DNA from: a phage
Sequence record: OZ346212.1
Reading direction: 5' to 3' (one strand)
Length of the DNA: 64,000 nt
Shown: one piece after another, positions 27,983 through 46,562 of the stretch
How positions within the stretch are numbered: the first letter of the stretch is position 1
How the letters are laid out: each line of letters starts with the position of its first letter
Translations under genes and position numbers: made by a program
Notes under the pieces: generated by a model
Databases searched by the model: none
The model's input: the letters and a program-made list of their open reading frames with translations, nothing else
Told to the model about the DNA's origin: nothing

Positions 27983-28043
27983 TAAGATGTGAGTATAAAG
28001 GGGAGGCACTCCTCCCCACAAAAACTAAGGAGAGCACCAAACG

Positions 28044-29369: not shown

Positions 29370-29382
29370 AGAGTACAATCAA

Positions 29383-29688
29383 ATGATGAAACGTTATAAA
29401 CCATACACTTTTGAAATCGATTTCGAACTTGACGATATGTTCACTGTGGAAGCTCAGGCAGTTGTCCAGTTGCCAGACCCAGAGTGTCGTGATTCTGATG
29501 TTGACTATTATGGATTTAGACAGATCACTGATGTGCATGTTTACCACAACGGTGAAGAGGTGGACTTCCACCAATTGCCAAACGATATGCGCCACTCAAT
29601 TTACAAACGTGCAGCCCGTGAACTAGAGTCCTATCTGGATGCAGCGACGACAGCAGCTGCATTTGCTGAAGAAGTGGGAGGTTTCTGA
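29383..29688 (+). CDS. hypothetical protein (101 aa; track start 29344 is TTG overlapping MTase gene)
   Basis: First in-frame ATG after the MTase stop. Confidence 0.5.
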   Translation: MMKRYKPYTFEIDFELDDMFTVEAQAVVQLPDPECRDSDVDYYGFRQITDVHVYHNGEEVDFHQLPNDMRHSIYKRAARELESYLDAATTAAAFAEEVGGF

Positions 29689-30083
29689 TGATTACAGGTG
29701 TGAAGATTATCCAATACCACTTAACCAAATTGGAAGATGCTGAAAAAGAGCTTGCAGAAGTTCTAAATAGTGGATATACTTTGCTATCATGCGCCTGCTC
29801 AGACACCTACGCTGTGTGGACACTTATCCGGAAGGAGGAGCCTGCAGGGATCTTGGTGCCAAACCCTAAGATTATCAGTGAAGTGGATGACTGCTCTCAG
29901 GACGGCCTGTCAGAAGACTGGGAAGCATGGGAAGGTGGTGAAAACCCTGCACCAGGTAAGTGGGTAAAATACAAACTACGTAGCGGTGCACAGCACGCTG
30001 GATACTCTGATAACCTGGACTGGAGTCATTCTTCACCGGAATCATTGGTAAGTGCATATGATATCGTTGCTTTTCAGGAATAA
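29688..30083 (+). CDS. hypothetical protein (131 aa)
   Basis: SD GGGAGG, start overlaps upstream stop. Confidence 0.6.
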   Translation: MITGVKIIQYHLTKLEDAEKELAEVLNSGYTLLSCACSDTYAVWTLIRKEEPAGILVPNPKIISEVDDCSQDGLSEDWEAWEGGENPAPGKWVKYKLRSGAQHAGYSDNLDWSHSSPESLVSAYDIVAFQE

Positions 30084-30095
30084 GGAGAGAGTGTT

Positions 30096-30578
30096 ATGTC
30101 AGATTTTATGTGGAAAGTAGGTTATGCCTCTCCTGAAATGTGCGAGGCTTGCTTTGTAAAAATAGGCCGCGAGGATATTGACAAAGTGATCTTTAAGTTT
30201 CGTGATGTATCTGTGATCGGCAACCGAGTGCTTAAGCACTTAAAGAATCTGAAGCTCACCAAAAAGAAGTTCTTCGGACTTTTCGAAGAGAAAGTTGATG
30301 CTTGGACCCATTGCATTCAGGAAGCTAAATCTCACTACAGTGCTATCGTTACCCCAGAACGGGTAGCCAAGATGGAAGGATTCATCAACAGCACAGAGTT
30401 TGAGTGCCTAAAGGCTGCCCTTAATAGTTATCCAAAGTGCCTCAAACACCTTGACAAGTATGTAGAAAAGGATGGGGAAATGTATCTCACCCTGGACGCA
30501 TATTATGAGATGCAAGAAATTTTAAATTTAGATTTGACATTGGTATCCACCGAGTATACAATAGGTATCCGGGTTTAA
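30096..30578 (+). CDS. hypothetical protein (160 aa)
   Basis: SD AAGGAGAGAG upstream. Confidence 0.65.
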   Translation: MSDFMWKVGYASPEMCEACFVKIGREDIDKVIFKFRDVSVIGNRVLKHLKNLKLTKKKFFGLFEEKVDAWTHCIQEAKSHYSAIVTPERVAKMEGFINSTEFECLKAALNSYPKCLKHLDKYVEKDGEMYLTLDAYYEMQEILNLDLTLVSTEYTIGIRV

Positions 30579-30584
30579 CACTAG

Positions 30585-30611
30585 GCCCTGCCCGAAAGGG
30601 TGGGGCTTTTT
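30585..30611 (+). terminator. rho-independent terminator with GAAA tetraloop
   Basis: GCCCTGCCC-gaaa-GGGTGGGGC followed by TTTTT; near-identical hairpin recurs at 41573. Confidence 0.7.
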
Positions 30612-30629
30612 GCATTAGGAGACAGCAAA

Positions 30630-31394
30630 TTGAAATTTATCTACAAAGAACACTACCACAAAGGTGTTGTGTGGAGTCTATTTGACGGGTCTGGTGGTGC
30701 AGTCATTGACTGGGCAAAAGCTGGGTACCTGTGCCTGTGCTTTAATGCAGAAGGCGCTGATCACGGCAGTTATGCAGAGGTTATAACCGATCATCCCAAC
30801 ATTCACTATGTGGATTATTGGATTGACCCATGGTTCCCTCAGGAAACTTTTTGCATGTACCCAGCTCCAGACTTTATTCTTGCATTTCCTCCGTGCACGC
30901 ATTTAGCGGTATCAGGTGCTGCACATTTTAAGAAAAAGCTGGCTAAGGACCCTCTGATCCAAATTAATGCCGTAAAGGATGCTCGGGTTGCGGAAGAGCT
31001 GGGAGAGATTTACGATTGCCCGTGGCATGTAGAGAATCCTGTGGGTGTTATGTCCACACTGTGGCGCAAACCTGATTACCGTTTTCATCCTTCTGACTAT
31101 GGTGGGTATTTACCGGAGGATGATGTAAACCCTTGGTTTCCTGAATTTATAGCTCCACGTGATGCCTATCCAAAAATAACTTGCGGCTGGATAGGTAATG
31201 GATTTATAATCCCGCCCACAAAACCTGTCCCGCAAATAGTTGACGCGGTTAGCGGGTATTCTATGCAACACGCCAAGCTGGGTGGAAAGAGTGCAAGAAC
31301 GAAGATGATTCGAAGTCTCACACCACGTGGCTGGGCAAAAGCCGTATTCTTAGCAAACGAGCCTGTAGTAAGGAGCAGAATTAATGGGAAGTAA
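30630..31394 (+). CDS. DNA (cytosine-5)-methyltransferase-like protein (254 aa, TTG start)
   Basis: Motif I LFDGSGG, motif IV FPPCTH (PC dipeptide, Q replaced by T), motif VI VENPVG; TTG start at 30630 with SD AGGAGA because track ATG 30600 lies in the terminator hairpin. Confidence 0.5.
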   Translation: MKFIYKEHYHKGVVWSLFDGSGGAVIDWAKAGYLCLCFNAEGADHGSYAEVITDHPNIHYVDYWIDPWFPQETFCMYPAPDFILAFPPCTHLAVSGAAHFKKKLAKDPLIQINAVKDARVAEELGEIYDCPWHVENPVGVMSTLWRKPDYRFHPSDYGGYLPEDDVNPWFPEFIAPRDAYPKITCGWIGNGFIIPPTKPVPQIVDAVSGYSMQHAKLGGKSARTKMIRSLTPRGWAKAVFLANEPVVRSRINGK

Positions 31395-33462
31395 ATTTAT
31401 GGCATCTGCATACAACCGTTTCGGTGAGCCAAACCCGAAAGCAACTAAGTATAAAAGTGGGGGGAGTGTGAAACGAGACTATCGTGATGAAAAAGAAGTT
31501 GAAACTGTAGAGACTGTTTTAGAAAATACTAAAATTGTCCCTGTCCCACAACAAAATATCGGTCTGATGGCTGCACAATATTTTGGTGTGCGATCAGCAT
31601 TGTCCCAAGAAGACGGTGTGACAGTCACTGCAACATATTTCCCATATTACGACCGCTACGGAAATCTGTCTGGTTTCAAAAAGCGTGACTGGACTATTCC
31701 TAAAGAGCAAAGGGGCCATTTCTCCGTTGTTGGCATCGTAAAGGCCAACTCCCAGATGTTTGGTCAAAAGCTGTGTGCATCTTCCAACAACCGTAAGCAG
31801 ATTAATGTTTGTGAGGGAGAAGGTGATGTTATTGCAGCATGGCAGGCTGCATATCAAATACAAGTAAAAGGGATTCTCACCAACGCTAAAGCCCCGGCAA
31901 AGGTGAAACAGTGGGCTAAAGAGGTCCAGGACGGGATCGATGCAGTTATCAACGGGGGTGATTTGGCAGGAAAACCCTGCCTGCCTTTTGTTGGAATTAA
32001 CTGTGGATGTGCAAACGCAGTAGATACTTTTGCAAACAATGAGAAATTTATCCGTAGCTACGGAACAGTGGTCCTTGCAATGGACAACGATGCGGCTAAC
32101 GAGGTAGAGAAGCAAAAACACGTTATCAAAGGTGTTGAAGCCACACATAATATTGCAGCATTTTTGATGGCTGACAACGTTTACCACGTGGAATATCCTG
32201 GCGAGGTAAACGACCCTGATGGTGTAAAAGATATCCGTGACATGCTGAAGGCTAAAAAGCTGGAAGATATTGTAAACATGTTCCGGCATCCTGTTAAGTA
32301 TGTGCCTGATGCTGTGTCGGATTTAGAAGACTTCTCTATCGAATCTTTGCGGAAAAAGACTTCCAACGGGGTAGATATCAGCGCAGAGTTTCCAAAACTG
32401 CAAAAAATGCTAAAAGGCTTGCACAAAGGGACACTCGTAATGCTTACAGGTCCATCAGGAGGTGGTAAAACAACTGTAGCCAAAAAACTGGAACACTGTA
32501 TTGCAAGATACCTAATGGACCCGACATGTCCAAAGGCCGATGACTACGAAGAGGATGATCGTCTATGCATGATTCATCTTGAGGAGGACCCAGAGGAAGC
32601 AATTAACTCCTTGTATGCAAACCAGTTAGGGTTTGATGTTAAAGAGTTTGTTGAAGATCCTAGCCAGTTTTTAACTGATCAAGAACATGCAGAGATTCAC
32701 CAATCATGGGCAAAAGCTGGAAAAATCAAAGTGTTCAAACATTTCGGGTCTATTCCAGTGGACGAGTTGATTACCAAGCTTAAGCAAATGGTCTGCCTGT
32801 ACCATTGTCGCTATATTGTGCTGGATCACCTGTCTATGGTAATTTCAGGGCTTAATGTTAAAGATGAGCGAAAAGAACTGGACATGGCTATGACTCAGCT
32901 GGCTGCGTTTTGTAAGCAGTTTAACGTGTTTATCTTGGTGATCGCTCACCTCAAACGTACAGAGATTGTGCCTCCTAAGGACAAGGATGGTAACCCATTA
33001 CCTTTCTGGTATCCTGTGCGAAAAGAGAATTTGCGAGGATCGGCTGGGCTTGAACAGTTGAGTTGGGTAGTCATAGGTGTCGAGGCCGAAGAAATGGTGG
33101 ATCGTTCTCGTGGGCGTGTCCGTCTGGTAGGTCTTAAAAACCGTCCAGCAAAAACTTTAGGTATTGCTGACACTTTAGTTATGGACCCACATACAGGTAA
33201 GTTCCATGATGCCAGTAATTGGTACTGGGACAAAGAAATGCAGATGTTTACAGACGGAGAAGGTGGGGAGGTTGTTTGGAGACCTCAGGCCATGTTTGAG
33301 GACCAAGAGCATGCAGTTGTAGAAACACCTATGGGCAAGGTTGTAGCCGATAAGGTTGTAACTCCTACTATTAAGCCTGTTGACACGCAGGAAGACCTTC
33401 AGTACGATGATCCATCCTCTGATCCGGTCCCCGGTTTTGAGGATGATGAAACACCTTTTTAA
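31384..33462 (+). CDS. T7 gp4-type primase-helicase (692 aa)
   Basis: N-terminal TOPRIM-like acidic motifs (CEGEGD, AMDNDAAN); C-terminal DnaB-like helicase Walker A GPSGGGKT and Walker B IVLDHL. Confidence 0.8.
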   Translation: MGSKFMASAYNRFGEPNPKATKYKSGGSVKRDYRDEKEVETVETVLENTKIVPVPQQNIGLMAAQYFGVRSALSQEDGVTVTATYFPYYDRYGNLSGFKKRDWTIPKEQRGHFSVVGIVKANSQMFGQKLCASSNNRKQINVCEGEGDVIAAWQAAYQIQVKGILTNAKAPAKVKQWAKEVQDGIDAVINGGDLAGKPCLPFVGINCGCANAVDTFANNEKFIRSYGTVVLAMDNDAANEVEKQKHVIKGVEATHNIAAFLMADNVYHVEYPGEVNDPDGVKDIRDMLKAKKLEDIVNMFRHPVKYVPDAVSDLEDFSIESLRKKTSNGVDISAEFPKLQKMLKGLHKGTLVMLTGPSGGGKTTVAKKLEHCIARYLMDPTCPKADDYEEDDRLCMIHLEEDPEEAINSLYANQLGFDVKEFVEDPSQFLTDQEHAEIHQSWAKAGKIKVFKHFGSIPVDELITKLKQMVCLYHCRYIVLDHLSMVISGLNVKDERKELDMAMTQLAAFCKQFNVFILVIAHLKRTEIVPPKDKDGNPLPFWYPVRKENLRGSAGLEQLSWVVIGVEAEEMVDRSRGRVRLVGLKNRPAKTLGIADTLVMDPHTGKFHDASNWYWDKEMQMFTDGEGGEVVWRPQAMFEDQEHAVVETPMGKVVADKVVTPTIKPVDTQEDLQYDDPSSDPVPGFEDDETPF

Positions 33463-33520
33463 TGTTTAACAAAGAGTGGGAGGGGTAGTACAACCGCCTC
33501 CCCTTTAAGGAGAACTGTAT

Positions 33521-35944
33521 ATGAGCATGTGGTCGTTCGACTTTGAGTCATCCGGTTTGCTGGAAGACCCAGATCTTTATTATCACTGCGGCCTGTTTAA
33601 AGAGCTGAATAAGAACCGTTTTATGCTGTTCCTTCCTCTAAATGACCGCACACACTACTCCGAGGAGGATATAGAAAAGGCTAAGAACTTCATTCTGGCA
33701 AAGAAAACTCTTTATAAAGATTTTGAAGTTCGCATAGCAGATTTTTCAGAGTTGGAAGGTTGGCTTACAGGAAATTCTGACTGGTCACCAACAGCTTTGA
33801 ACTGCCATAACTGCTACAGTTATGACTTTATGCTGATGGAAAGATTATCTGGTATTCATTTTGATATGTTCCGTGATCCTAAGTGTATGGGGACTATCAA
33901 CGATCACCAGGTTAACCTGTTTGATACGTTGGCGATGAGCCGAATCTTGTGGCCTGATCGCCCTTTACCAAAAGGTTGTCCGGACTCTGTATTCAACCCG
34001 GTTACTAAGAAAATGCAGCCTGTTGGTCCTCACGGCCTTATGGCATGGGGCTACGCCCTTGGTAACCAGAAAGTTCAAATTGATGACTGGCGCGATCTTC
34101 CGTTATGGAAGTATGTGGATCGTGTATTTGAGGACGTTATCATCCAGGAGCTGCTCTGGAAAGAGCTGGTAGCGGAATCAAAAGGTGTATTCTACGGCAA
34201 ATCTGACATGCAGAACTTTATGTACGATCCTGCCAAAGAGAAGCCGAAAGGGTTCAAGAAGATCACCTGGAAGAACGCATTACGTCGAGGCATGTTGCAG
34301 CACTTCCTGATGGAGCTGCAGGCCCGTCAGGGTGTATACTTCGACATAGATGGGGCTATTGCTTTACGTGACCGCTGCGATGCGTGGATGAAAGAGATCG
34401 CTGATCGTGTTGAACCACAACTGCCTTTAAAAGAGCTGTCAATGTCTCAGCGGCCCAAGTTCCCTGAAAAGCCGTTTAACCAAGATGGGACAATCTCTAA
34501 TAATGGTTGGAAATGGTTAAAAGATAAGCTTGGCTATCCTGTGGACATGAGTGCTTTAGAGTTCAAAGCCCCACCTAAGCGAGCATTTACCTCTACAGGA
34601 GATGTCAGTAAGATGGGGATAAAATGGTGTGAAGAGATGGGCTGCAAAGACCACGATAAGATGGCTGATTTCTTGAGAGGTTATATTAAGGGCACCTCCA
34701 CACCACAACCTTTACCTAAAGAGCTGATGGATCAGGCAATAAGCGATCTGCAACAGAAGCGAATGCCTGACTGCAAGATACCTATGAAAATCAGCAATCA
34801 GGACGACATTAAGCGATACCTGATCAGTGCTGGTTGGCTTCCGACAATGTGGAGAACTAAGGATGTAACTAAGGACAGCAAGAAGAAAGCTCTACCTGAT
34901 GCAGATGTTGATGCACGAGTATATGCATACATGGACGAGCTTTTAGAGTCAGAGTATTGTGACCTAATTATCAACTTCTGGAACAAAACTGATGCTAAGT
35001 TTCAGACAACAGTGCACAAGTTCCGAAGCTTTCCTAACTCCGAAAGGATTAAAAAGGAAGTGTTCGGGAAAATACGCAGAAAAGCCAGGGCACTTATTAC
35101 TTCTCCGCAACTGAAAGATACGTTTGGACACCTATGTCCGAATCTTGAAAAATTGAACGGAGAGATGGCTAAAGATATCGTCTTGTGGTTATCATTGCGA
35201 AACCGCAGATCGGTCCTTGATCCAATCAAGGAGGATAAGGTTGATACTGGTCTTCTTAATCACCCACGTTTGAAGATTGACCATAAGCTTCCTGCTAAAA
35301 GCTCTGGATTAACAAACACTTCCCGACAGAAACACAGTATTTGTGCAAACATGCCTAAACCATCTCCTAAAGTGGTTATGGGTAAAGAGATGCGTAGCTT
35401 GTGGGGTGTTCCTCCTGGATACTTTGAGATCGGTATTGACGGGTCCAACTTAGAGCAGCTTATCGGGGCTTGGGGTGCCTTTGAGTTCGACAACGGCTTG
35501 TACTATGATGTTGTAAGTAACGGGGACGCACACCAAAACAATGCTGAGGCATATACAAAAGTAGCAGGCAGAGAGGTGTCTCGTAACGACGGTAAACCTA
35601 TCACGTATGGGGTTATGTACGGGGCACAAAAAGATAAAGTTGCAGATATGCTGGATATCTCCCCAGAGTTGGGGCAAAGGGTGATCGATGCACTTTGGGA
35701 TGCCAACCCAGGTCTTAAGGGGCGCAAAGAGGATCTGGAGAAATTCTGGGAAGCAACAGGTAAGAAGTTTATCTACTCTTTTGATGGTCATGCTATCTGG
35801 ACCCGATCTAAACACTCTTTACTTAATGCATACCAACAAAATGGCGGCGCATCGTTGTGTGACTTAGTTGGGATACTCATGCACCATCAAATGGTGAAGC
35901 GTGGGTGGTACGATGAAGGTGTTCGTCGTATTATCTATTACCAT
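33521..35944 (+). CDS. DNA polymerase, family A, exon 1 (exo domain through motif B)
   Basis: Exo I SFDFES; motif A ...EIGIDGSNLEQL...; motif B ...RNDGKPITYGVMYGA...; the ORF reaches a stop 2 codons after the proposed 5' splice site and lacks motif C. Confidence 0.8.
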
Positions 35945-36786
35945 AAATAACATTGTGGCTTCGTGCAGTGATGCACGTCGAAAACCTCTTTAATTGACGG
36001 GAAGGCTAAGTTGACTTTTACACCTAAACATGGTAAAAGCTCAATATGCTAATCCGCAGCGAAGACTAAAGGGGTGTAGTTAAAATGGCTAGATCAGTTG
36101 AGTATCACGGATATACCGTGTTTGATGATGGAACAATACCTTTATCGAAACGTGATCATACAACAATGTTTTGTTTTGATAATGGTCGAGGTTACCTTTG
36201 CGTAACCATGTTCATCGAGGGGAAGCAGTGCACAAAAGGTGTCCACCACTTGGTTGCTGAATGCTTTGTATCAAACCCTGATCCTGAAAGGCTCACATGG
36301 GTGAACCATAAGGACGGAAACAAATACAACAATGCATACTGGAACCTTGAATGGACCACCCCTGGTGGAAATATCAAACACGCTTATGATAATGACCTCA
36401 GAGTAAGGCCAGTCGGTGAGTATAATGCCAACGCTGTACTGACCGAGGATGAGGTAACGGAGATTTGCGAACTGTTACAAAGTGGTTTACGACAATGCGA
36501 GATTAGGGATCTTGGGTATCCTTATGAGACGGTCAGAGCCATAAAGCAAAGAAGACAGTGGAAACATATCTCTAAAAACTACACCTGGTAGTAACGTTCA
36601 GAGACTATCGAAAGCATAGCGCCAACATAAATTGGTGCGAAGAAGCGAGTAGAGTAGACCAGCAAGTGCGGTCGAAATGGGAGGTGCCTTGGTAACAAGG
36701 TAGTGAGATAGTCCGATCCATACAGGAAACTGTATGGCTGTGCACGTAATGGTGCGGGGTAGCTTAACGACCTACCTGAACTATTG
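35945..36786 (+). ncRNA. group I self-splicing intron (842 nt) interrupting the DNA polymerase gene
   Basis: Core elements P aattgacgggaagg (35992), Q aatccgcagcgaag (36051), R gttcagagactatcg (36596), S gagatagtccgatcc (36705); exon ends in U pairing with intron GUGG; intron ends in G; removal restores RIIYYH-DEYQLQV (motif C). Confidence 0.75.
36085..36591 (+). CDS. HNH homing endonuclease encoded within the intron (168 aa)
   Basis: HNH_3-like motif VHHLVAECF...VNHKDGNKYNNAYWNLEWTT; lies between Q and R elements (P6-loop position). Confidence 0.8.
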   Translation: MARSVEYHGYTVFDDGTIPLSKRDHTTMFCFDNGRGYLCVTMFIEGKQCTKGVHHLVAECFVSNPDPERLTWVNHKDGNKYNNAYWNLEWTTPGGNIKHAYDNDLRVRPVGEYNANAVLTEDEVTEICELLQSGLRQCEIRDLGYPYETVRAIKQRRQWKHISKNYTW

Positions 36787-37140
36787 GATGAGTACCAACT
36801 TCAAGTCCCTGACACACCGAAGTATAAGACTGTGTACACCTTCGACACAATCGAAGAACTGGAAGCATTTAAGGCAGAGCAGGAGGCCAAACTTCATGTG
36901 TTCGACGGTCATAAGTACAAAAAGGCACGCAAGGATGAGGACGGAAACGAAGTGGTTGACAGAGACGGAAACACGGTGTACGATCCTATCCTGAACGATG
37001 ACGGAAAGCTTGAACTTATCTGGAGCCCTGTGGGTGAAATGGTGGTGCATTGCTTCTGGCAAGCTTCTAAAATGATGGGCGTCCCGTTCCAGATCACGGG
37101 TGAATACCTGTGTGGTCGTAATTGGGGTGATTGTCACTAA
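36787..37140 (+). CDS. DNA polymerase, family A, exon 2 (motif C to C-terminus)
   Basis: Begins DEYQLQV in frame with exon 1; no plausible independent start or RBS. Confidence 0.7.
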   Translation, partial: DEYQLQVPDTPKYKTVYTFDTIEELEAFKAEQEAKLHVFDGHKYKKARKDEDGNEVVDRDGNTVYDPILNDDGKLELIWSPVGEMVVHCFWQASKMMGVPFQITGEYLCGRNWGDCH

Positions 37141-37189
37141 TGTAAACTATCAACACATGGAAGTGTTGTTGAGCAAAGAGGAGACTTTT

Positions 37190-37474
37190 ATGGTAGTAGA
37201 ACCAACAAAAACATTTACATCCATGACTATCCCTGTTATTATGCAGGTGGAGTGTGTTCAGGTATCTCAAGTGTGGCCTGGCACCAAAATCCCGACAGGG
37301 CCTGATTTCTTTCAGGTTGGCAAAGTGTACAATGTCTGGAAGGCACCAGATTGTTACCCTTTCATCAAAGATGACCGTGGGATGCTGTGGTATCTTGGAA
37401 ATGATTTGACACTGCACCTTGGGAATGCTATTATTGCAGTATTCAGACTTAACAAGAAGGAGACTGATCAATGA
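37190..37474 (+). CDS. small protein of the KDDxGxxW family (94 aa)
   Basis: ATG 37190 with SD AAAGAGGAGA; motif FIKDDRGMLWYL shared with the next two genes. Confidence 0.55.
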   Translation: MVVEPTKTFTSMTIPVIMQVECVQVSQVWPGTKIPTGPDFFQVGKVYNVWKAPDCYPFIKDDRGMLWYLGNDLTLHLGNAIIAVFRLNKKETDQ

Positions 37475-37698
37475 CGACTTTGGTTAAAGCTACCTTTGTA
37501 GAAGAAAAGATGACAGACCTGTCATTCTTTAAAGAAGGAAAGACCTACGAGGTTTATTACGATAAAGCTCGTGCAAATAAAATGATTAAAGACGAGGAAG
37601 GGGTTGCCTGGTTTATCTCCCATCTGGCAAACGGTGAGTATCATATCTACGGAACCACCCTGCTTGCCAAGTTTGTAGCTGTTGAAGAGGACCTATGA
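37471..37698 (+). CDS. small protein of the KDDxGxxW family (75 aa)
   Basis: SD AAGGAGA; motif MIKDEEGVAWFI. Confidence 0.6.
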   Translation: MTTLVKATFVEEKMTDLSFFKEGKTYEVYYDKARANKMIKDEEGVAWFISHLANGEYHIYGTTLLAKFVAVEEDL

Positions 37699-37889
37699 AA
37701 GTAAAGTATCTGGCTGAGGGTATGAGTAGGTATTTCACCCTTGGTGAAGAATATTGGCCATTTACAAGCAACGGCGATGTCTACGTGAAAGATAATTTCG
37801 GCACGCCATGGTTTTTGCACCCTAACGGGTTAGGGTATTCTATTTATCGCAGTGCAATGAGCGACACAACCCTTGCAGAGTTTGTATAG
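37695..37889 (+). CDS. small protein of the KDDxGxxW family (64 aa)
   Basis: SD-like GAAGAGG; motif YVKDNFGTPWFL. Confidence 0.6.
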   Translation: MKVKYLAEGMSRYFTLGEEYWPFTSNGDVYVKDNFGTPWFLHPNGLGYSIYRSAMSDTTLAEFV

Positions 37890-37899
37890 AGGAGGTAGA

Positions 37900-38271
37900 A
37901 TGTTAGTAAAAGGTACTCACACAGTCAAACAACGTATCGAAGTTGAGATCGATGACTGCGAGCTGAAGCATATTTTACGGTCATGTTCCAACGTTTTGCT
38001 CCTTAGTATTCTCCAGGAGCGAGCGGAGAACGAGTTCTTAAATGCACTGGCAGGCCGCCCTGGTGATTTCTGTGTGCGTAAGCGTGGTGACAACAAGTCA
38101 TGGCTGTGGGAGATAGACGCAGAATGGGATTACCATAAAAATGAGGGTATAGATGAACCTATTCGTGAATTGACGGACAACGAGGTTCAGATGTACAATG
38201 AAGTTTGTCAGTGGGCAAAAAGTCAACAAACTTATCTTGATCCTTGGTGGATGATCGAAAATAGTCGTTGA
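37900..38271 (+). CDS. hypothetical protein (123 aa)
   Basis: ATG 37900 with SD GAGGAGG preferred over upstream track start 37873. Confidence 0.6.
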   Translation: MLVKGTHTVKQRIEVEIDDCELKHILRSCSNVLLLSILQERAENEFLNALAGRPGDFCVRKRGDNKSWLWEIDAEWDYHKNEGIDEPIRELTDNEVQMYNEVCQWAKSQQTYLDPWWMIENSR

Positions 38272-38347
38272 CAGGAAGTAAGATTAGATATAAGATGCTT
38301 CACACAAACAGAGCGTTGATTGTTTAACACTTAAGGAGACCGCTAAG

Positions 38348-38602
38348 ATGAAAATTACTCTGAAGCCAGAATGCGTTGAAAATGACCGAGCTTTTAAAGA
38401 TTGCACAATCGGTGCAATTTATGAAGCAGAGTTTTGTGAGAACCCTTTGGTAAAAGCCCTTCTGGAAGAAGGAGCTCCTCTATCACAGGAAGAGCTTGAT
38501 GAGTTGGAAAACTCAGCACAGTGCCTTACCTTTAAAGATGATGAAGGAGACTCTGTCTGGTGCACTGTTAATGAAGTAGTTTTTGTAAAACCTGAACATT
38601 AA
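38348..38602 (+). CDS. small protein, paralog pair member (84 aa)
   Basis: SD AAGGAGA; KPECVENDRAFKDCT...TFKDDEGDSVWCT aligns with 38666..38938. Confidence 0.6.
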   Translation: MKITLKPECVENDRAFKDCTIGAIYEAEFCENPLVKALLEEGAPLSQEELDELENSAQCLTFKDDEGDSVWCTVNEVVFVKPEH

Positions 38603-38605
38603 TGC

Positions 38606-38634
38606 TTGACAACAGTCATAGGGCCTACTATAAT
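38606..38634 (+). promoter_or_regulatory. consensus sigma70 promoter (TTGACA-N17-TATAAT) with inverted repeat AGGGCC/GGCCCT flanking the -10
   Basis: Perfect hexamers at 38606 and 38629. Confidence 0.7.
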
Positions 38635-38665
38635 GGCCCTATCAAAACGAAAGGGGACCACAGCA

Positions 38666-38938
38666 ATGACCAAACAATATCAACGAATTAAAGCCAAGGT
38701 TAAGCCAGACTATCTGGAGAAGGACTCTGCTTTTCGGGACTGCACAGCTGACAAAGTTTACACAGGGGCCGTCCTGTTGAACGATGAACTTGAAGTAGAT
38801 ATTCTGGGTAAAGAGGCCACTATTAAGGACGACCAAGGCGATTATGTTTGCTGCACCACACGTGAGCTAGAAATCTTAGAATACTTCGGTGAAATCTTCA
38901 CCTCTCTTGATGATTACTTAGATGATGAGGAAGCGTGA
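38666..38938 (+). CDS. small protein, paralog pair member (90 aa)
   Basis: Start moved to ATG 38666 because track start 38606 lies inside the promoter; KPDYLEKDSAFRDCT...TIKDDQGDYVCCT. Confidence 0.6.
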   Translation: MTKQYQRIKAKVKPDYLEKDSAFRDCTADKVYTGAVLLNDELEVDILGKEATIKDDQGDYVCCTTRELEILEYFGEIFTSLDDYLDDEEA

Positions 38939-39327
38939 TGAAAAATATTTGGGATATCGATATCTTTGAAGCCTCTAAGCTTGATGGTGCTGATGGAGTG
39001 ATTATGGTGTCTGATGGCAAAGCAACACTAACTTCCGGAGATATCATCTATGCCTTGGACGAGCTGGCGCTTCTGAAATCTACCGGTAACACTTTAGAGG
39101 AGCGTCTTCAAGGCTTCGCCTTCAAAGAAGGCACAAATACCGCCATGATGTGCACCACACGGACAGTTCAAGTTGGTAACGGTGTCTATATGATCATTGC
39201 TGTGTGTCCTAAATTCAGCAACGTCAACAAAGATGATGCTGACGCTGTCAACGATGTGGTTGTTCTCTTCGTGGGTGACGCTATGGCAGATCTGATGAAT
39301 GCAGGAGAAGCAGCAAATGAAGACTGA
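38935..39327 (+). CDS. hypothetical protein (130 aa)
   Basis: SD GAGGAAG, start overlaps upstream stop. Confidence 0.6.
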   Translation: MMKNIWDIDIFEASKLDGADGVIMVSDGKATLTSGDIIYALDELALLKSTGNTLEERLQGFAFKEGTNTAMMCTTRTVQVGNGVYMIIAVCPKFSNVNKDDADAVNDVVVLFVGDAMADLMNAGEAANED

Positions 39328-39619
39328 AAACATCACCCCCGCAGGGTTCTTAAAAGTATACCGTGAACTGCTATATACTACAGAGGACAGTGTTCTAGAG
39401 TATCCAGAATATCTTTTGCTGTATAAGTATCTGCAGGAGGCTGGTGAAAATCTGCCAGTTAGTGCAGAAGGTGGTCCGAACTGGATATACAGCGCATGGA
39501 GAAAGGTTGACATTCTCCCAGATCCGGGTAAAGATATGGTAGTTTGGCAGCTTATCAACAACATCGGGATTCCAATCTTTGATGAAGCTGTTAAAATCTA
39601 TTTTGAACTTGACGATTAA
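39317..39619 (+). CDS. hypothetical protein (100 aa)
   Basis: ATG 39317 with SD AGGAGAAG; overlaps end of upstream gene. Confidence 0.5.
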   Translation: MKTENITPAGFLKVYRELLYTTEDSVLEYPEYLLLYKYLQEAGENLPVSAEGGPNWIYSAWRKVDILPDPGKDMVVWQLINNIGIPIFDEAVKIYFELDD

Positions 39620-39636
39620 TATCAGGAGACCTTAAG

Positions 39637-39882
39637 ATGGCTGAAGTAGTTGCTCGCGCAGGACAGAAAGTACGTTGTGTGGAAGTAGGTTTTGGTGGCA
39701 AAGGGTGTCAAAACTTGACTCAAGGTAAGGAATACGCTGTTATTTCTGGTGGTGGCGACGAGAGTATTGTGTTCGAGGGCCACATCCTGGATGCTGAAAA
39801 CTTTGAAATCTTTGACGACGATGGAGATCCGATCACCTGCCTGCTGGACGGGAATTGGGGAACTTTCGAAGTGATTGGCTAA
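39637..39882 (+). CDS. hypothetical Gly-rich small protein (81 aa)
   Basis: SD AGGAGAC upstream. Confidence 0.6.
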   Translation: MAEVVARAGQKVRCVEVGFGGKGCQNLTQGKEYAVISGGGDESIVFEGHILDAENFEIFDDDGDPITCLLDGNWGTFEVIG

Positions 39883-39965
39883 CAAATACCTATTGTAATT
39901 TACAGAAGGGGATGCTAAAATAGTGTCTCCTTCTATGTTGTTCAAATAAAATCGGAGATTCCATA

Positions 39966-40331
39966 ATGGAACAAATGAACGATCAAGCGTCGGTTGCGAT
40001 GAACGAGCAAGAACAACCTCAAGAATTTTTCTTAGGGTTAAGTAAAGATCAAGTGTCTCTTCTGCTAGTGCTTTCTTCTTTCATGGGAAGACTTCAGGAG
40101 CTCACACAACAGCCAGAGGCTGAACAATTATTCCAAGCTTTGCGTGAAGAAGAAAAATATCGTCGTTTGGACTATGCCTTAGGTTGGGTAGCTCAACAAC
40201 GAGATATGCTGATGGCCCTCTCTGGGACCACAAGTTTTGCAATGGGGCTGTTGGCTCAAGTTCAGGACAAATTAATTCAAGCAGGGTTTGCACACACGGC
40301 AAACACTAACGAAGAACAAGGAGACAAATAA
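39966..40331 (+). CDS. hypothetical protein (121 aa)
   Basis: SD GGAGA upstream; start of next gene overlaps stop. Confidence 0.6.
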   Translation: MEQMNDQASVAMNEQEQPQEFFLGLSKDQVSLLLVLSSFMGRLQELTQQPEAEQLFQALREEEKYRRLDYALGWVAQQRDMLMALSGTTSFAMGLLAQVQDKLIQAGFAHTANTNEEQGDK

Positions 40332-41557
40332 TGAGCGTTATTCAACAATTCGCTAACCCGATGAATCCGCGTGAAACTGTTTTACTGGCTCACGGCATGA
40401 TTAAACGTGTCAGCATCAAGCCTATCAAAGGTGCTGATCCTACAACAGGTATTAAAACCACTGTGTGGCAAGGTAAGAAAATTGAATCCAGCCACACCAT
40501 CTCTTTACTGATTTCTGAACTGGATTCCTCTGATAACCTGCTTCAAGGTGGTGAAGAAGTTTGGATCAGCATGGGTGATAAGCTGCTTAAACCTGGTCAT
40601 CAAGACTCTGTCTCTGTTAAAATTGATGACAAGTGGGAAACCGTAACGCCGGGATGGATCGTAAATATTCCTTTGAAGGCAAACGAGCATAACGGTAAGA
40701 CCTATTACAAAGGCTCACTGGCTAAGATGGTCAAGCTGGGTGCAGGAGAGGCTCCAGCAGCGACTCAGCAGCAAAAACAGCAACAAGGTGCACAATCACA
40801 AGGCCAGAAGCAGAAACCTCAGCAGAATGCCAATCAGGACGTTTTACGCATCTATGGTGATGTGACTCAGATTGTTGGCAACGTGGTTACTGTTAATGAC
40901 CACAAGATTGGCGAAGGTGCTATGGTTGTAACTGATGAGCAGCTTAAAGACCTGGTGGTAGGTGGTCGTGTTGCAGCCATTGTTGACAAAGACACCGGAA
41001 ACATTATCAGTGGTTTCAAGGCCTATCCTCCTAAGGCAGAGAACGGCACTCAAGGCTCTGGTGGCAAGCGTAAATCCTCTTACGACCCTATCGGTGTGGA
41101 AACGGGGCATAGCATCAATGCGTTGCAGATCATCCTGGATCGCGGGTTTAAGGTAGACGACCCACTGGGCGTGGCTAAAACACTGCACGTAGTCACCATT
41201 GAGCTTAAGAAAGAGTATGCTCAAGCCACCAACCGAGCTGAAGATGAAGTAGGTGCCAGTGTCGGTAATGCGGTGTTGAACGCTTGTCGCCGTATTGACA
41301 AGAAAACGAAAGTTGATGATTTTGCAGTGGCAATTACTGCAGAAGCAAAAGATGTCTTGACTAATCTAGCTGAGCCGTTGTACGATTGGATCAAGAACGG
41401 TGCTGAGTCCACTGACCATCAAGAACCTCAGGCTGCCAAACAGGAAGCAGCTCCACAGCAAAACACTGTAGACGCTCCTCCTGTAAATGATGCGGAAGAT
41501 GACCCAATGGATCAGAATCCAGCACAGTACGTCTTTGATGATGACATCCCATTTTAA
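40331..41557 (+). CDS. ssb: single-stranded DNA-binding protein with host-like acidic C-terminal tip (408 aa)
   Basis: C-terminus ...VFDDDIPF ends in the hexapeptide DDDIPF of E. coli SSB; Gln/Gly-rich linker precedes it; located in replication module. Confidence 0.65.
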   Translation: MSVIQQFANPMNPRETVLLAHGMIKRVSIKPIKGADPTTGIKTTVWQGKKIESSHTISLLISELDSSDNLLQGGEEVWISMGDKLLKPGHQDSVSVKIDDKWETVTPGWIVNIPLKANEHNGKTYYKGSLAKMVKLGAGEAPAATQQQKQQQGAQSQGQKQKPQQNANQDVLRIYGDVTQIVGNVVTVNDHKIGEGAMVVTDEQLKDLVVGGRVAAIVDKDTGNIISGFKAYPPKAENGTQGSGGKRKSSYDPIGVETGHSINALQIILDRGFKVDDPLGVAKTLHVVTIELKKEYAQATNRAEDEVGASVGNAVLNACRRIDKKTKVDDFAVAITAEAKDVLTNLAEPLYDWIKNGAESTDHQEPQAAKQEAAPQQNTVDAPPVNDAEDDPMDQNPAQYVFDDDIPF

Positions 41558-41572
41558 CATTTAGTTAACATA

Positions 41573-41600
41573 GCCCTGCCAGAAAGGGTGGGGTATTTTT
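41573..41600 (+). terminator. rho-independent terminator
   Basis: GCCCTGCC-agaaa-GGGTGGGG followed by TATTTTTGT. Confidence 0.65.
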
Positions 41601-41619
41601 GTATAAGGAGATCTAAAAA

Positions 41620-42036
41620 ATGACATTAGAAGATATCATTGTTAAACCTGAGAACTATGACCAATACAACCTGTCAACTCAATCTGTAGACCTTGGATGC
41701 GCCACGGTCAGTGCGTGGCTGGTTAACGGAAAAGAGCTGGATAAATGCTTAGAAGCTCACATGTCTATTAACAAGTTTCTGGATGAAAATACTCACTGGC
41801 TTGAGGGTGCAGGAGTATATGCTTCATGGTTGGAAAGTATGGGATTCGACTACCAATCTGAAGAAGGGTGGTGGAGCTATTTAGCTATCTGCCCAGAGAC
41901 GCTGCAATGCTTCATGAAATATTCTGAAGATTTGGAGTACCGGGCGGTGGTTGATAGTGCTATTGCCCGTTATAGCCGTAAACCTTTTTCCCACGACATT
42001 AAAACTGTGGAAGAGTTTGTTGAAGTTTTCTGTTGA
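41620..42036 (+). CDS. hypothetical protein (138 aa)
   Basis: SD AAGGAGA upstream. Confidence 0.6.
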   Translation: MTLEDIIVKPENYDQYNLSTQSVDLGCATVSAWLVNGKELDKCLEAHMSINKFLDENTHWLEGAGVYASWLESMGFDYQSEEGWWSYLAICPETLQCFMKYSEDLEYRAVVDSAIARYSRKPFSHDIKTVEEFVEVFC

Positions 42037-42132
42037 CACAGGTGGAAAGGTGTGCAATTATAACTTCATAGAACGGGAGGACGTGATGAACGAAGAAAAC
42101 TGGGATGTATAACTAACAGGAGGCCACTGCCC

Positions 42133-42330
42133 ATGATTTATCGAATCCGTGTAAGAGAAGATGCACCAGGCTGTTACTTTGACTGGCGTGGGTGGTGGTT
42201 TCTCCACCCAATGGATGGACTCACAGATAGAATGCTGGATGCTGCCCTTTATACAGATACCGACATAGAATATAATCTCTATCTGAAGGACGGTATAGAT
42301 AACGGCCTGTTTGAAGCAATTCCTGTGTAA
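42133..42330 (+). CDS. hypothetical small protein (65 aa)
   Basis: SD AGGAGG upstream. Confidence 0.55.
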   Translation: MIYRIRVREDAPGCYFDWRGWWFLHPMDGLTDRMLDAALYTDTDIEYNLYLKDGIDNGLFEAIPV

Positions 42331-42398
42331 GAGACTGTAATAGCTATGTTTTATGATCTTCCTGTAGCACCACCACCTGTTGAACCCGGAGAACTAAG

Positions 42399-42824
42399 AT
42401 GATCTATGAAATGCCAAAACTGATTCGTGACGATGCCCAAAACGCCCACACCTTTATCATGGGCAAGCGCATGGATATTATTTGTCATAAAGATTTCTGG
42501 GAAGGTAGTTACTTCACAGAATATTTTGGTAAACTGGATAATGGTCTGCTGATCCAGTTCTACACCGATGCGGAAAACAATATCTGCTGGGAGTTCGAAA
42601 CTGAAGATATCCATAAACTTTTCACCTTCCTAGGTATTAAGGTTGAGGCCAAGTTTGAAGAAGGCGAGTGCGACGATTGTGGATTCTACGAGGTAACAGA
42701 TTTCTATCTCCCAAGTGGTGAGAACCTTTACTATGAAAGCCACTTCGGCAACTCAAATATGCCACAAGGTTGGGATGAGTTTTTTGAAATTGCGGAAGAG
42801 GAGCTGACATACCGTGATTATTGA
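42399..42824 (+). CDS. hypothetical protein (141 aa)
   Basis: SD GGAGAA upstream. Confidence 0.6.
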   Translation: MIYEMPKLIRDDAQNAHTFIMGKRMDIICHKDFWEGSYFTEYFGKLDNGLLIQFYTDAENNICWEFETEDIHKLFTFLGIKVEAKFEEGECDDCGFYEVTDFYLPSGENLYYESHFGNSNMPQGWDEFFEIAEEELTYRDY

Positions 42825-43272
42825 TACTGTAGCGGGAGATTTAATCTCCCTTTTTAAGAGCGGTGCTGGTCACCTGATCCACGGTTGTAACTGCTTTCAT
42901 ACAATGGGTGCAGGCATAGCGAAAGATATTGCCCGTGAGTTCCCTCAAGCACTGGCAGCCGACAAAGAGACTGCCTATGGTAATCTGGACAAGCTGGGTA
43001 TGTTTTCTTGTTGGGAGCATTTTGCCAAGAACAGGGTCGTATATGGAATCAACCTGTATACCCAGTTCTACCCAGGGCCCAATGCTGAATACTTCTCAAT
43101 AATGAAAGGTTTTGAGCGAGTCAACGAGGTATTCAAAGGTGTGTCATTGCCGTTCTACATTCCTAAAATTGGATGCGGTATTGGCGGTCTAAAGTGGGAA
43201 CATGTAGAAGATGTAATTAATCTTGCAACCACAGATATTGATGTGGTTGTAGTAGAGTACAAAAAGTGTTGA
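42814..43272 (+). CDS. macro-domain (ADP-ribose-binding/processing) protein (152 aa, GTG start)
   Basis: Macro-domain pattern: ...GDLISLF...AGHLIHGCNCFHTMGAGIAKDI (matches VNAAN...GGGV..AI region) and ...LPFYIPKIGCGIGGL (matches the FP.I.TG..G region). Confidence 0.65.
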   Translation: MIIDTVAGDLISLFKSGAGHLIHGCNCFHTMGAGIAKDIAREFPQALAADKETAYGNLDKLGMFSCWEHFAKNRVVYGINLYTQFYPGPNAEYFSIMKGFERVNEVFKGVSLPFYIPKIGCGIGGLKWEHVEDVINLATTDIDVVVVEYKKC

Positions 43273-43297
43273 CGACCATCTTCTGAGGTGATATAGT
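43269..43297 (+). promoter_or_regulatory. sigma70-like promoter (TTGACG-N17-TATAGT)
   Basis: Hexamers at 43269 and 43292. Confidence 0.6.
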
Positions 43298-43523
43298 TTC
43301 CACAACAACTAAGAGAGGAGAGCACTGTGGAGACTAAAATCTTAATTCTTGCTGTGGTAGATACAACCGAAGGAGCTATATTCGAATCTGCAGGGGGGTA
43401 TTTCTACCTACCATACGGAAAAAGAACTTCCGAGCCAAGTAAAGATTCAATCCTCAAGGTGTTCCCGTGTGCTTTCTGGCTGGAGATTTTGGTATAAGAT
43501 TGCAGAGGATTTGGGAGAGAATT

Positions 43524-43718
43524 ATGAGAAACAAGAAAGAGCTTTACTCTGGTGAGTGGATCAACGATCAACAGGTGGGAGAGGTAACCTGCTTCCGATG
43601 TTTTACCAGGTACAATCTTAAAACTGCACCAAAAAGTGTTCCAAAGACTGACGGTTATTACATAAAAGAACCTCATTGCCCAAAATGTAAATGCCGATTA
43701 TACTGGAGTAACCTGTAA
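43524..43718 (+). CDS. small zinc-ribbon protein (64 aa)
   Basis: ATG 43524 with SD GGGAGAGA; CFRCF...CPKCKC cysteine pairs. Confidence 0.55.
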   Translation: MRNKKELYSGEWINDQQVGEVTCFRCFTRYNLKTAPKSVPKTDGYYIKEPHCPKCKCRLYWSNL

Positions 43719-43722
43719 AAGA

Positions 43723-43750
43723 TTGACATCTGAAAACTGCAGTGTATAAT
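43723..43750 (+). promoter_or_regulatory. consensus sigma70 promoter (TTGACA-N16-TATAAT)
   Basis: Hexamers at 43723 and 43745. Confidence 0.7.
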
Positions 43751-43781
43751 ATATGCATAAACTAACAGAGAGTGATGTATT

Positions 43782-43973: not shown

Positions 43974-43983
43974 GTATCGTGCC

Positions 43984-44316: not shown

Positions 44317-44337
44317 GAAAGTCCAGGAGATAAAGTT

Positions 44338-45099: not shown

Positions 45100-45129
45100 T
45101 ACTTGAAAATTCCTGGCATATCAAGTATA

Positions 45130-46559: not shown

Positions 46560-46562
46560 GTA

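Follow-up and report, generated by a model that had tools for sequence, protein, structure and literature searches.

The window, by which we mean the whole 64,000-nt stretch of DNA analyzed here, comes from a Vequintavirus (an rV5-like coliphage) whose nearest relative is phage AlexBoehm. On its plus strand, a family A DNA polymerase gene is interrupted at motif C by an 842-nt group I intron, within which lies an HNH homing-endonuclease gene. The polymerase ORF (33521..35950, 809 amino acids) ends in ...RRIIYYHK and a stop codon. Its Pfam DNA_pol_A match breaks off at profile position 261 of 381, and the ORF therefore lacks motif C, as the original prediction had it from the ORF list. Exon 1 (33521..35944) comprises 808 codons ending in ...IIYYH, the final one being CAT at 35942-35944, and was delimited by the ORF list, the partial Pfam match and an alignment to T7 DNA polymerase. 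The intron (35945..36786) reads AAAUAA...CUAUUG and is identified by Rfam family RF00028, intron-less alleles and a joined coding sequence in GenBank; because of its first nucleotides, the unspliced RNA contains an in-frame stop codon at 35948-35950. Exon 2 (36787..37140, 117 codons plus the stop, DEYQLQV...GDCH) opens with the Asp-Glu of motif C, as judged from the spliced ORF, the T7 sequence and the intron-less alleles. It had also been claimed that deletion of 35945..36786 restores an HDE-type motif C, and this held: ...IIYYH is fused in frame to DEYQLQV... in a 925-amino-acid ORF (...IIYYHDEYQLQV...; about 106 kDa), whose junction aligns with ...WVHDEIQV of T7 (H653-D654-E655). We take T7 H653 to be the equivalent of H881 of Escherichia coli Pol I, the histidine of the motif C HDE. 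Across the junction, marked here and below by a slash, the predicted spliced RNA reads ...UACCAU/GAUGAG..., corresponding to ...UAUUACCAU/GAUGAGUACCAA... in the DNA.

The 3' splice site, originally placed by frame restoration only, is now fixed independently by four intron-less alleles. All four of these relatives are contiguous at 35944/36787 with zero gap (...TATTACCAT/GACGAATATCAG...). The boundary cannot slide, because the first intron base is A and the first base of exon 2 is G, and because exon 1 ends in T and the intron in G. Phage C15 possesses an uninterrupted 925-amino-acid polymerase identical to the spliced product of the window, and the GenBank protein QXV75624.1 (MZ501048) results from a splice at the same boundaries. 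The sequence and the intron-less alleles place the terminal guanosine (omega G) of the 3' splice site at 36786 on the plus strand, the G with which the intron was expected to end, and 13 of 13 homologous introns end in G immediately before GAU/GAC GAR. The alleles also differ silently at the start of exon 2, where the intron-bearing ones have GAT GAG TAC CAA and each of the four intron-less ones examined has GAC GAA TAT CAG. The intron-less sequence of C15 and DrSchubert is ...TACCATGACGAATATCAG..., and the intron-type silent changes are GATGAGTACCAA. Position +3 of exon 2 is T in four of four Vequintavirus intron-containing alleles compared and C in four of four intron-less ones.

A covariance-model scan for group I introns had been suggested as a check on the original prediction. 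With E-value thresholds, a scan of all 64 kb on both strands against 4227 Rfam families returned Intron_gpI (RF00028) as its only match, at 35935-36736 (39.1 bits, E = 1.8e-6), spanning the full length of the model (1-253 of 253). A local RF00028 scan gave the same 39.1 bits (E = 3e-8). This significant match does not reach the gathering score of 50 because P6 holds a 507-nt ORF, and there the alignment contains an unaligned insertion of 510 nt; at gathering thresholds the Rfam scan of the window returned no match, and the intron is seen only under E-value thresholds. The ORF-less sibling intron of JLBYU08 scores 72.5 bits, and six further ORF-less or LAGLIDADG-bearing homologues score 54-91 bits. 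Those of rV5 (64.7), Avunavirus (91.2), K412 (77.3), KASIA (69.4) and VLCpiM5b (69.8) all exceed the gathering score. No tRNA or other structured RNA besides the intron was found in the 64-kb window. Other kinds of intervening sequence were considered. An intein was rejected because of the in-frame stop codons in the insert and the ribozyme core, and a group II intron because none was matched and the architecture of the insert does not fit one. A further intron at another place in the polymerase of the window was rejected because exon 1 is continuous and no further Rfam match was obtained.

The secondary structure was examined in 13 introns, namely that of the window and twelve homologues from other phage genera at the same codon junction, using an unfitted MAFFT alignment and a set of hand-anchored helices. 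The core elements P (aattgacgggaagg, 35992-36005), Q (aatccgcagcgaag, 36051-36064), R (gttcagagactatcg, 36596-36610) and S (gagatagtccgatcc, 36705-36719) were located by sequence, all on the plus strand like the helices below, and in the order and at the places that had been proposed. The P1 hairpin (35941..35958; from the sequence and the Rfam alignment) is formed by CCAU/AA at 35941-35946 and the guide UUGUGG at 35953-35958. The U35944·G35955 wobble marks the 5' splice site, in accordance with the earlier suggestion that the last exon nucleotide pairs with GUGG. The motif UACCAU/A...UUGUGG is kept in 13 of 13 homologous introns, and this invariance leaves no covariation to test in P1. A candidate P10 of only 4 bp can form between CAUU at 35951-35954 and the exon 2 nucleotides GAUG at 36787-36790. 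The P2 hairpin (35962..35977, CGUGCA-GUGA-UGCACG) has compensatory changes in six of six pairs, with 78/78 cells paired across the 13 introns. P3 pairs CCUCUU (35985..35990) with GGGAGG (36679..36684); the cells of its 5' strand are 100% paired, and pairing and covariation of the 3' strand are seen in both alignments, with compensatory changes at five of six positions in the hand-anchored helices and four of six in the MAFFT alignment.

The P4-P5 domain (35995..36058) holds elements P and Q and is defined by the pairing of P4, in which UG(A)CGGG at 35995-36001, with A35997 bulged, faces UCCGCA at 36053-36058. In the hand-anchored set, P4 is paired in 78/78 cells and has one G-C to U-A compensatory position. 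P5, P5a and P5b occupy 36004-36050, and the P5 extension varies in length and is aligned poorly by MAFFT. The P6 domain (36059..36597) encloses the ORF and was assigned by the pairing of P6 and P6a, with P6b drawn from the window sequence. P6 (GCG 36059-61 with CGU 36595-97) is paired in 38/39 cells. P6a (ACUA 36065-68 with UAGU 36589-92), which includes the stop codon of the ORF, is paired in 52/52 cells, all four positions being compensatory. P6b joins GGUGUAG (36073-79) to CUACACC (36579-85); the ORF-less JLBYU08 sibling has a simple CAUCC-GAGA-GGAUG hairpin at this place. P7 consists of GACUAU (36603..36608, inside element R) and AUAGUC (36708..36713, inside element S), and the pairing and covariation of its 3' strand are observed in both alignments (73/78 cells with two compensatory positions in the hand-anchored helices; 93.6% paired with MAFFT). 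Between P7 and P3' lies an IA2-type insertion of P7.1 and P7.2 (36609..36673), recognized in the sequence and the MAFFT alignment. P7.1 (36609-36647, inner stem CGCCAA/UUGGUG, in which the slash separates the two strands) is variable and absent in K412, and is joined by GUAGAGUAG to P7.2 (GACC 36657-60 with GGUC 36670-73), which is 100% paired in the MAFFT alignment with three of four pairs compensatory. By the criterion stated in PMC3428280, an intron of subgroup IA2 has two extra helices, P7.1 and P7.2, that separate P7 from P3' and are connected by G-U-A, and the window intron has this arrangement, linker included. The P8 hairpin (36685..36702, UGCCUUG-GUAA-CAAGGUA) is paired in 65/65 cells, and all five tested positions are compensatory. 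P9, P9.1 and P9.2 (36720-36735, 36741-36756 and 36758-36776) are paired in every cell of the hand-anchored set (65/65, 52/52 and 65/65), with 4/5, 4/4 and 4/5 positions compensatory.

Taken over all helices, the MAFFT alignment has 88.1% of cells paired versus 72.8 ± 0.9 in shuffles, and 52 pairs change on both sides versus 33 ± 2.9, a control that takes no account of sequence relatedness; none of 500 shuffles reached the observed value. Slid registers of the same alignment are 36-44% paired. Of the 702 cells in the hand-anchored helices, 693 are paired (shuffles, 533.5 ± 8.9), and 41 of 54 positions are compensatory, with anchors chosen by hand and one mis-picked P7.2 (Aeromonas 2L372D) kept and counted against the structure. 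The paired fractions over the two alignments are 95-97% for P6, 94% for P7, 89-100% for P8 and 96-100% for P9. MAFFT misaligns the stretch from P4' through P6 in VLCpiM5b, as well as the variable P5 and P6b extensions, so that these helices score lower, and support for P6b and the P5a/P5b extension is thus confined to the window sequence and its close relatives. The strong compensatory covariation in the homologous introns argues for the predicted fold from P2 to P9.2.

The 168-amino-acid ORF (36085..36591, plus strand) lies in the P6b loop, between elements Q and R as the ORF list had indicated. It encodes an I-HmuI-like HNH homing endonuclease, as identified by I-HmuI (PDB ID: 1U3E), PHROG 59 and Pfam HNH_3. 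The earlier assignment to an HNH_3-type endonuclease is upheld by PHROG 59 (E = 6.5e-38) and I-HmuI (E = 4.4e-6), and Pfam HNH_3 itself stays below its threshold (17.7 bits, E = 0.0027; cut-off 24.8). In the I-HmuI match, only residues 12-100 align, and H75, N87 and N96 are aligned. Given this homology, including the His-Asn-Asn core, a nicking mechanism is the best guess. An Asn occupies the place of I-HmuI Asp74, as in the SPA01, 2L372D and CB7 relatives, and catalytic competence is consequently not guaranteed. A Shine-Dalgarno-like AAGGGG is present at 36069-36074, partly within P6b. The protein is identical to QXV75625.1 and belongs to a 155-member 90% cluster, nearly all listed members of which are 168 amino acids long. 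In Pakpunavirus, as in Seunavirus and phages related to it, this loop is occupied by orthologues with 50-55% identity. The orthologue in SPA01 appears to be frameshifted.

The same intron is already annotated in GenBank (as the joined CDS of MZ501048.1), and introns of this type have long been known. In that record, of the BASEL phage AlexBoehm, the intron is identical at 842 of 842 nt, the HNH protein is identical, and the genes follow each other in the same order as in the window. The polymerase (bas56_0073) is given as a joined CDS and bas56_0074 as a putative homing endonuclease; the join was derived from comparative genomics (PMC8594841). Exon 1 is only 90.9% identical to that of AlexBoehm, which places the window phage in another Vequintavirus lineage. 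The intron CB7_50 of Pectobacterium phage CB7 (a Certrevirus of the Vequintavirinae) was found by RT-PCR on infected cells to be removed from the mRNA (PMC7344957), and an intron of Shewanella phage KASIA was likewise removed, as established by RT-PCR and cDNA sequencing (PMC8541194). CB7_50 and the second KASIA intron share with the window the ...YH/DE... junction, the same UACCAU/A...UUGUGG P1 and homologous P3-P9.2. The HNH protein of CB7_50 is smaller (127 amino acids) and distantly related, and its start codon overlaps P4'. The KASIA intron, unlike that of the window, has no ORF, and CB7 has a second intron upstream that is absent from the window. For the T7-like coliphages PhiI and W31, PMC3428280, with reference to Bonocora and Shub (2004), describes self-splicing IA2 introns that have an HNH gene in P6a and lie at "site 881" when numbered as in E. 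coli; their endonuclease is I-TslI, and a ribosome-binding site is discussed as limiting its expression. By this description, they resemble the window intron in host gene, insertion site, P7.1/P7.2 and an HNH ORF in P6a, but the phages that carry them are podoviruses, whereas the window phage is an rV5-like myovirus. The introns of SPO1, SP82 and Bastille, which encode the nicking HNH enzymes I-HmuI, I-HmuII and I-BasI, also reside in phage family A polymerases, but in the fingers subdomain, at site 674 when numbered as in E. coli (PMC3428280), and the hosts of these phages are Gram-positive, unlike that of the window phage.

Based on this architecture, we propose that the polymerase gene is transcribed as a single pre-mRNA, in which the intron RNA would fold into the P1-P9.2 ribozyme. 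Free guanosine would attack after U35944, within the U·G wobble of P1. The freed 3'-OH of exon 1 would then attack after G36786, with exon 2 held by the short P10 (GAUG with CAUU), and the product would be an mRNA for the 925-amino-acid polymerase with an intact HDE motif. Translation of unspliced RNA would terminate two codons into the intron and yield an inactive 809-amino-acid fragment. During mixed infections, the HNH protein may nick intron-less alleles near the insertion site, and recombinational repair would copy the intron and neighboring exon sequence into the nicked allele. Self-splicing, endonuclease activity and the endonuclease cleavage site are what we infer for the window phage. 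We are highly confident that a mobile group I intron, containing P7.1 and P7.2 as in subgroup IA2, separates the His and Asp-Glu codons of motif C.

It is very improbable that the insert stays unspliced and that the endonuclease gene instead splits the polymerase into polypeptides of 809 and 117 amino acids that reassemble after translation. Split genes of this kind exist, an example being NrdA of Aeromonas phage Aeh1, split by mobE. An ORF from the TTG at 36784 covers exon 2, two distinct "DNA polymerase" CDSs are given in several GenBank records, and one HNH-containing insertion of CB7 did not splice (PMC7344957). However, a free-standing gene has no need of a complete covarying ribozyme core, ORF-less versions of 254-343 nt occur at the same junction, and the break falls inside one catalytic motif, parting His from Asp-Glu. 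Moreover, position 36784 is preceded by no Shine-Dalgarno-like sequence (CCUGAACUAUUG), and introns homologous to this one are spliced out at the same site (PMC7344957, PMC8541194). The premature stop codon at 35948-35950 is the sole point in favor of a pseudogene, broken by a decayed mobile element in a phage that replicates with another polymerase. We give this explanation hardly any credence, since purifying selection on both exons is clear and they encode the same protein as the uninterrupted gene of C15, with 38 silent nucleotide differences. In addition, dozens of viable isolates carry the allele, and the 50 kb examined of the collinear AlexBoehm record include no annotation of a second polymerase.

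A dead or domesticated HNH ORF within a splicing ribozyme, with the intron inherited only vertically or via general recombination, is an unlikely explanation. The Asn at the Asp74 position, the subthreshold HNH_3 score and the apparent frameshift in SPA01 point in this direction, and the ORF-less derivatives are common, in keeping with the cycle of gain, decay and loss that homing endonuclease genes undergo. On the other hand, the ORF is intact at 168 amino acids in nearly all listed members of the 155-member cluster, H75, N87 and N96 are conserved, and a 1,520-nt tract of 100% identity in 91-96% surroundings suggests a very recent localized transfer.

The distribution of the alleles bears on intron mobility. 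Among approximately 117 Vequintavirus records, which are 95-99% identical, alleles with the HNH intron, with an ORF-less intron and without an intron coexist; about 30-33 records have the HNH intron, and the remainder either have an ORF-less intron or lack one altogether. In rV5, JLBYU08, K412, KASIA and VLCpiM5b, the intron at the same junction has no ORF and measures 254-343 nt; RudolfGeigy carries an ORF-less intron of 276 nt. As such introns break the same essential codon junction, the genes concerned can work only if the RNA is removed. The tract of complete identity to AlexBoehm extends over 35759..37278 on the plus strand: it takes in the intron and exon 2, together with 186 nt of exon 1 on one side and 138 downstream nt on the other. 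Identity to AlexBoehm is lower over the whole of exon 1 (90.9%), in the primase/helicase gene (96.2%) and downstream (93.2%). The tract is probably the co-conversion tract of a recent homing event, judging from sequence comparison. The presence/absence polymorphism and the identity tract are consistent with homing, and they are no proof that the endonuclease drove the transfer.

With the 276-nt rV5 intron, the window intron has in common the first 18 nt, P7.2 and the last ~50 nt, but its core is shared with the JLBYU08 intron. We tentatively suggest, as a possibility that we consider clearly less than even, that the intron is a recombinant mosaic of two ribozyme lineages competing for one site and, jointly with this, that the cluster of silent changes in exon 2 is an immunity signature. 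The changes at +6, +9 and +12 could keep an I-HmuI-like nickase that recognizes the 3' exon from attacking intron-bearing DNA, and the U at +3 would be needed for P10. If this is true, the allele series in one phage collection would be a ready system for studying intron competition and endonuclease target discrimination.

The window intron leaves the knowledge of group I introns and homing endonucleases unchanged, and its main value concerns annotation quality. Default pipelines miss the intron, as the Rfam scan at gathering thresholds is empty, and in the deposited records of rV5, the type phage, and many relatives, the polymerase is either truncated and accompanied by small spurious ORFs or split into two "DNA polymerase" genes. 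At the same time, this one codon junction offers a natural allele series of intron-less, ORF-less, HNH-bearing and LAGLIDADG-bearing forms. Several of these alleles are present in public BASEL phages and are usable for work on homing, co-conversion and intron competition.

The family A DNA polymerase ORF at 33521..35950 stops early, after 809 aa (C terminus ...RRIIYYHK*), and its Pfam DNA_pol_A match reaches only position 261 of 381 in the profile. When 35945..36786 is left out, the frame is restored and a 925-aa ORF with the junction ...IIYYHDEYQLQV... is obtained. The alignment with T7 DNA polymerase runs unbroken over this junction (riiyyHDEyql versus mawvHDEiqv; T7 H653-D654-E655), indicating that the gene is interrupted within motif C, after the His and before the Asp-Glu. 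In all four intron-less alleles, the junction reads ...TATTACCAT followed by GACGAATATCAG... with zero gap at 35944/36787, and the splice boundary is unable to slide because the flanking bases differ. The uninterrupted 925-aa protein of phage C15 is identical to the spliced product of the window, with 38 silent differences between the coding sequences. The gene of Escherichia phage AlexBoehm, spliced at the equivalent positions, gives exactly the GenBank protein QXV75624.1, and thus the deposited join has the same boundaries. The intron opens with AAA UAA, so that translation of the unspliced mRNA ends after 809 aa. Both the observation and the interpretation in the original prediction, a group I intron splitting the polymerase at motif C, were correct.

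The region matched 117 phage records at 90–99% identity, nearly all of them Vequintavirus (rV5-like E. coli myophages). The top match was AlexBoehm, with which the window is collinear from AlexBoehm position 33832 onward; the gene order at the locus is primase/helicase, DNA polymerase, and small ORFs. No tRNA genes were found in the window (1..64000). Sixteen records (MG0656xx) labeled as Campylobacter phages, e.g., the UNVERIFIED “Campylobacter phage C15” (segment L018), are 95–99% identical to E. coli Vequintaviruses here, and their host label is doubtful. Three states of the locus were found in close relatives: an uninterrupted polymerase (e.g., DrSchubert, C15, slur16, and V18), a 276-nt ORF-less insert (rV5, RudolfGeigy, and phita32), and the 842-nt insert; JLBYU08 has a 329-nt ORF-less insert. 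The HNH intron is present in about 30–33 of the ~117 Vequintavirus records. The rV5 intron (L002, DQ832317, 2901..3176) is almost exactly window-like in its first 18 nt, P7.2, and last ~50 nt and diverged in P2, P4–P6, P7, P8, and P9, and the JLBYU08 intron has the core of the window and the P2 of rV5. These alleles look like recombinant mosaics. The polymerase genes of Avunavirus 18-1-2, CB7, and GEC_vB_MG each have a second group I intron match (36.5–47.5 bits; segments L007 14..217, L013 362..565, and L008 69..217, respectively) ~380 nt upstream, and no counterpart was found in the polymerase of the window. Mangalyan (L021 1..2117) and VB-EcoM-WM carry a ~322-aa in-frame insertion in polymerase exon 1. 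The insertion, with a weak Hint_2 match below threshold (E = 2.6e-4), is probably an intein that shares its host gene with the HNH intron.

An Rfam scan of the window at default (gathering) thresholds gave no match. When covariance-model matches were reported by E value, Intron_gpI was detected at 35935–36736 over the full model with 39.1 bits, below the gathering score of 50 because of a 510-nt unaligned insertion in P6. The E value was 3e-8 locally and 1.8e-6 over the whole window, where this was the sole hit, and no other Rfam match was found at E ≤ 0.05 in 1..64000. Homologues carrying an ORF are likewise penalized (GEC_vB_MG, 39.3 bits; CB7, 46.6 bits), and ORF-less ones exceed the Rfam threshold (JLBYU08, 72.5; rV5, 64.7; Avunavirus 18-1-2, 91.2; K412, 77.3; KASIA, 69.4; and VLCpiM5b, 69.8 bits). 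The predicted core elements P, Q, R, and S occur in that order at 35992–36005, 36051–36064, 36596–36610, and 36705–36719.

The fold was examined by comparing the window intron with those of 12 further phages, all at the ...YH/DE... junction: rV5, JLBYU08, Avunavirus 18-1-2, Seunavirus GEC_vB_MG, PVP-SE1 (Seunavirus), LTH01, Mydovirus VLCpiM5b, Certrevirus CB7, Aeromonas 2L372D, Pakpunavirus SPA01, Vibrio K412, and Shewanella KASIA. All 13 introns keep UACCAU/A...UUGUGG and end in G before GAU/GAC. In a plain MAFFT alignment without ORF interiors, with the structure derived from the window, 88.1% of cells were paired and 52 pairs were changed on both sides, compared with 72.8 ± 0.9% and 33 ± 2.9 in shuffles, which ignore the kinship among the sequences; by no measure were these values matched in any of 500 shuffles. 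When the 3′ partners were slid by 1–3 columns, only 36–44% stayed paired. In hand-anchored stems, the anchors of which were picked by the analyst, 693 of 702 cells were standard pairs (41 of 54 positions compensatory), against 533.5 ± 8.9 (maximum 563) when the 3′ strands were swapped among sequences. P2, P3, P6a, P7.2, P8, P9, P9.1, and P9.2 are especially clear, and the P3/P7 pseudoknot is supported. The support for the long P5 and P6b extensions comes only from the window sequence and near relatives. Between P7 and P3′, the fold has P7.1 and P7.2 linked via GUA, which is the feature given for subgroup IA2 in PMC3428280.

At the 5′ splice site, the last exon-1 base, U35944, pairs with G35955 in P1. 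P10 is possible between the exon-2 start GAUG and CAUU (35951–35954) in the guide region. Consistent with this pairing, exon-2 position +3 is U in all four intron-containing Vequintavirus alleles compared and C in all four intron-less ones. Alleles with either the HNH intron or the 276-nt intron of the rV5 type have GAT GAG TAC CAA as the first four exon-2 codons (36787..36798), compared with GAC GAA TAT CAG in the four intron-less alleles; all four differences within these 12 nt are silent. Of the bases typical of intron-bearing alleles, JLBYU08 has only the +3 T. The other three changes could reflect co-conversion from a donor or endonuclease immunity.

P6b (GGUGUAG 36073-79 with CUACACC 36579-85) closes the loop that holds the ORF (36085..36591); the stop codon of the ORF forms part of P6a, and an SD-like AAGGGG (36069-74) is partly within P6b. 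Its assignment as an HNH endonuclease holds by matches to I-HmuI (PDB 1U3E; E = 4.4e-6, residues 12–100, with H75, N87, and N96 aligned) and PHROG 59 “HNH endonuclease” (E = 6.5e-38), but the Pfam HNH_3 match is below threshold. Opposite I-HmuI D74 in the alignment, the protein has Asn, and so do its relatives in SPA01, 2L372D, and CB7. In GEC_vB_MG, LTH01, and SPA01, the corresponding loop holds orthologues with 50–55% identity. The 90% cluster of the protein has 155 members, almost all of 168 aa, and relatives are encoded in >550 phage records. The SPA01 orthologue (L011) is seemingly frameshifted at an A run near its 5′ end, reflecting either a decaying gene or a sequencing error.

Within this one ribozyme family, both the endonuclease gene and the loop that holds it vary, and introns without an ORF also occur. 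The HNH gene of the window intron lies in P6; CB7 and 2L372D have a smaller HNH starting inside P4′; and the homologous PVP-SE1 intron at the same junction (L015 1501..2419) has, after P7, a LAGLIDADG_2 gene (Pfam E = 1.4e-16) in the P7.1 region, in place of an HNH in P6. The smaller HNH proteins (2L372D, L010; CB7_50, L013) are 127–130 aa, and their first codons, AUG GGU AAU CAG CAG, are the conserved P4′ (Q) element, so that coding and ribozyme sequences overlap. The varied and absent ORFs fit the usual cycle in which endonucleases are gained and lost. A free-standing 215-aa NUMOD4 + HNH_3 + HTH endonuclease gene sits in the short spacer directly past the polymerase stop codon in phita32 (L005 3551..4198) and is absent in the window and RudolfGeigy.

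The window and AlexBoehm are 90.9% identical in exon 1 overall and 93.2% downstream; 35759..37278, a 1,520-nt tract centered on the intron, is 100% identical. It takes in the intron and exon 2 together with the final 186 nt of exon 1 and 138 nt beyond exon 2, and it resembles the product of a recent gene conversion, as would be expected after recent homing with co-conversion. We infer both splicing of the intron and cleavage by the ORF protein: in the explanation that fits best, guanosine-initiated splicing would restore the HDE motif, and the endonuclease would drive homing, probably via nicking as in I-HmuI (PMC3017599). Synthesis of the polymerase as two polypeptides is very unlikely, as the ribozyme core covaries, the same site holds ORF-less versions, exon 2 has no ribosome-binding site, and homologous introns at this junction are spliced out of the mRNA in CB7 (PMC7344957) and KASIA (PMC8541194).

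The intron is of a known, experimentally characterized kind, and a public annotation of it already exists: the AlexBoehm record carries a joined polymerase CDS. Residue 881 in E. coli numbering is the His of HDE. The T7-like coliphages PhiI and W31 are reported to have self-splicing IA2 introns at “site 881” with an HNH ORF in P6a (PMC3428280), so their insertion site is the same as that of the window intron. The BASEL authors, whose AlexBoehm record contains the join, state that their intron boundaries were set via genome comparison (PMC8594841). In the 2013 rV5 paper, the polymerase is given as 775 aa, and the terminase gene is the only one for which introns are mentioned (PMC3606486). In the record of this type phage (rV5; L002, DQ832317/NC_011041, 579..3530), a truncated polymerase ORF 228 (775 aa) is annotated, with small hypothetical ORFs 227–225 covering the 276-nt intron and exon 2. 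Two “DNA polymerase” CDSs appear in many other records. These erroneous annotations arose because the intron was unrecognized, and the value of the locus lies in annotation correction and in its possible use as an experimental system.
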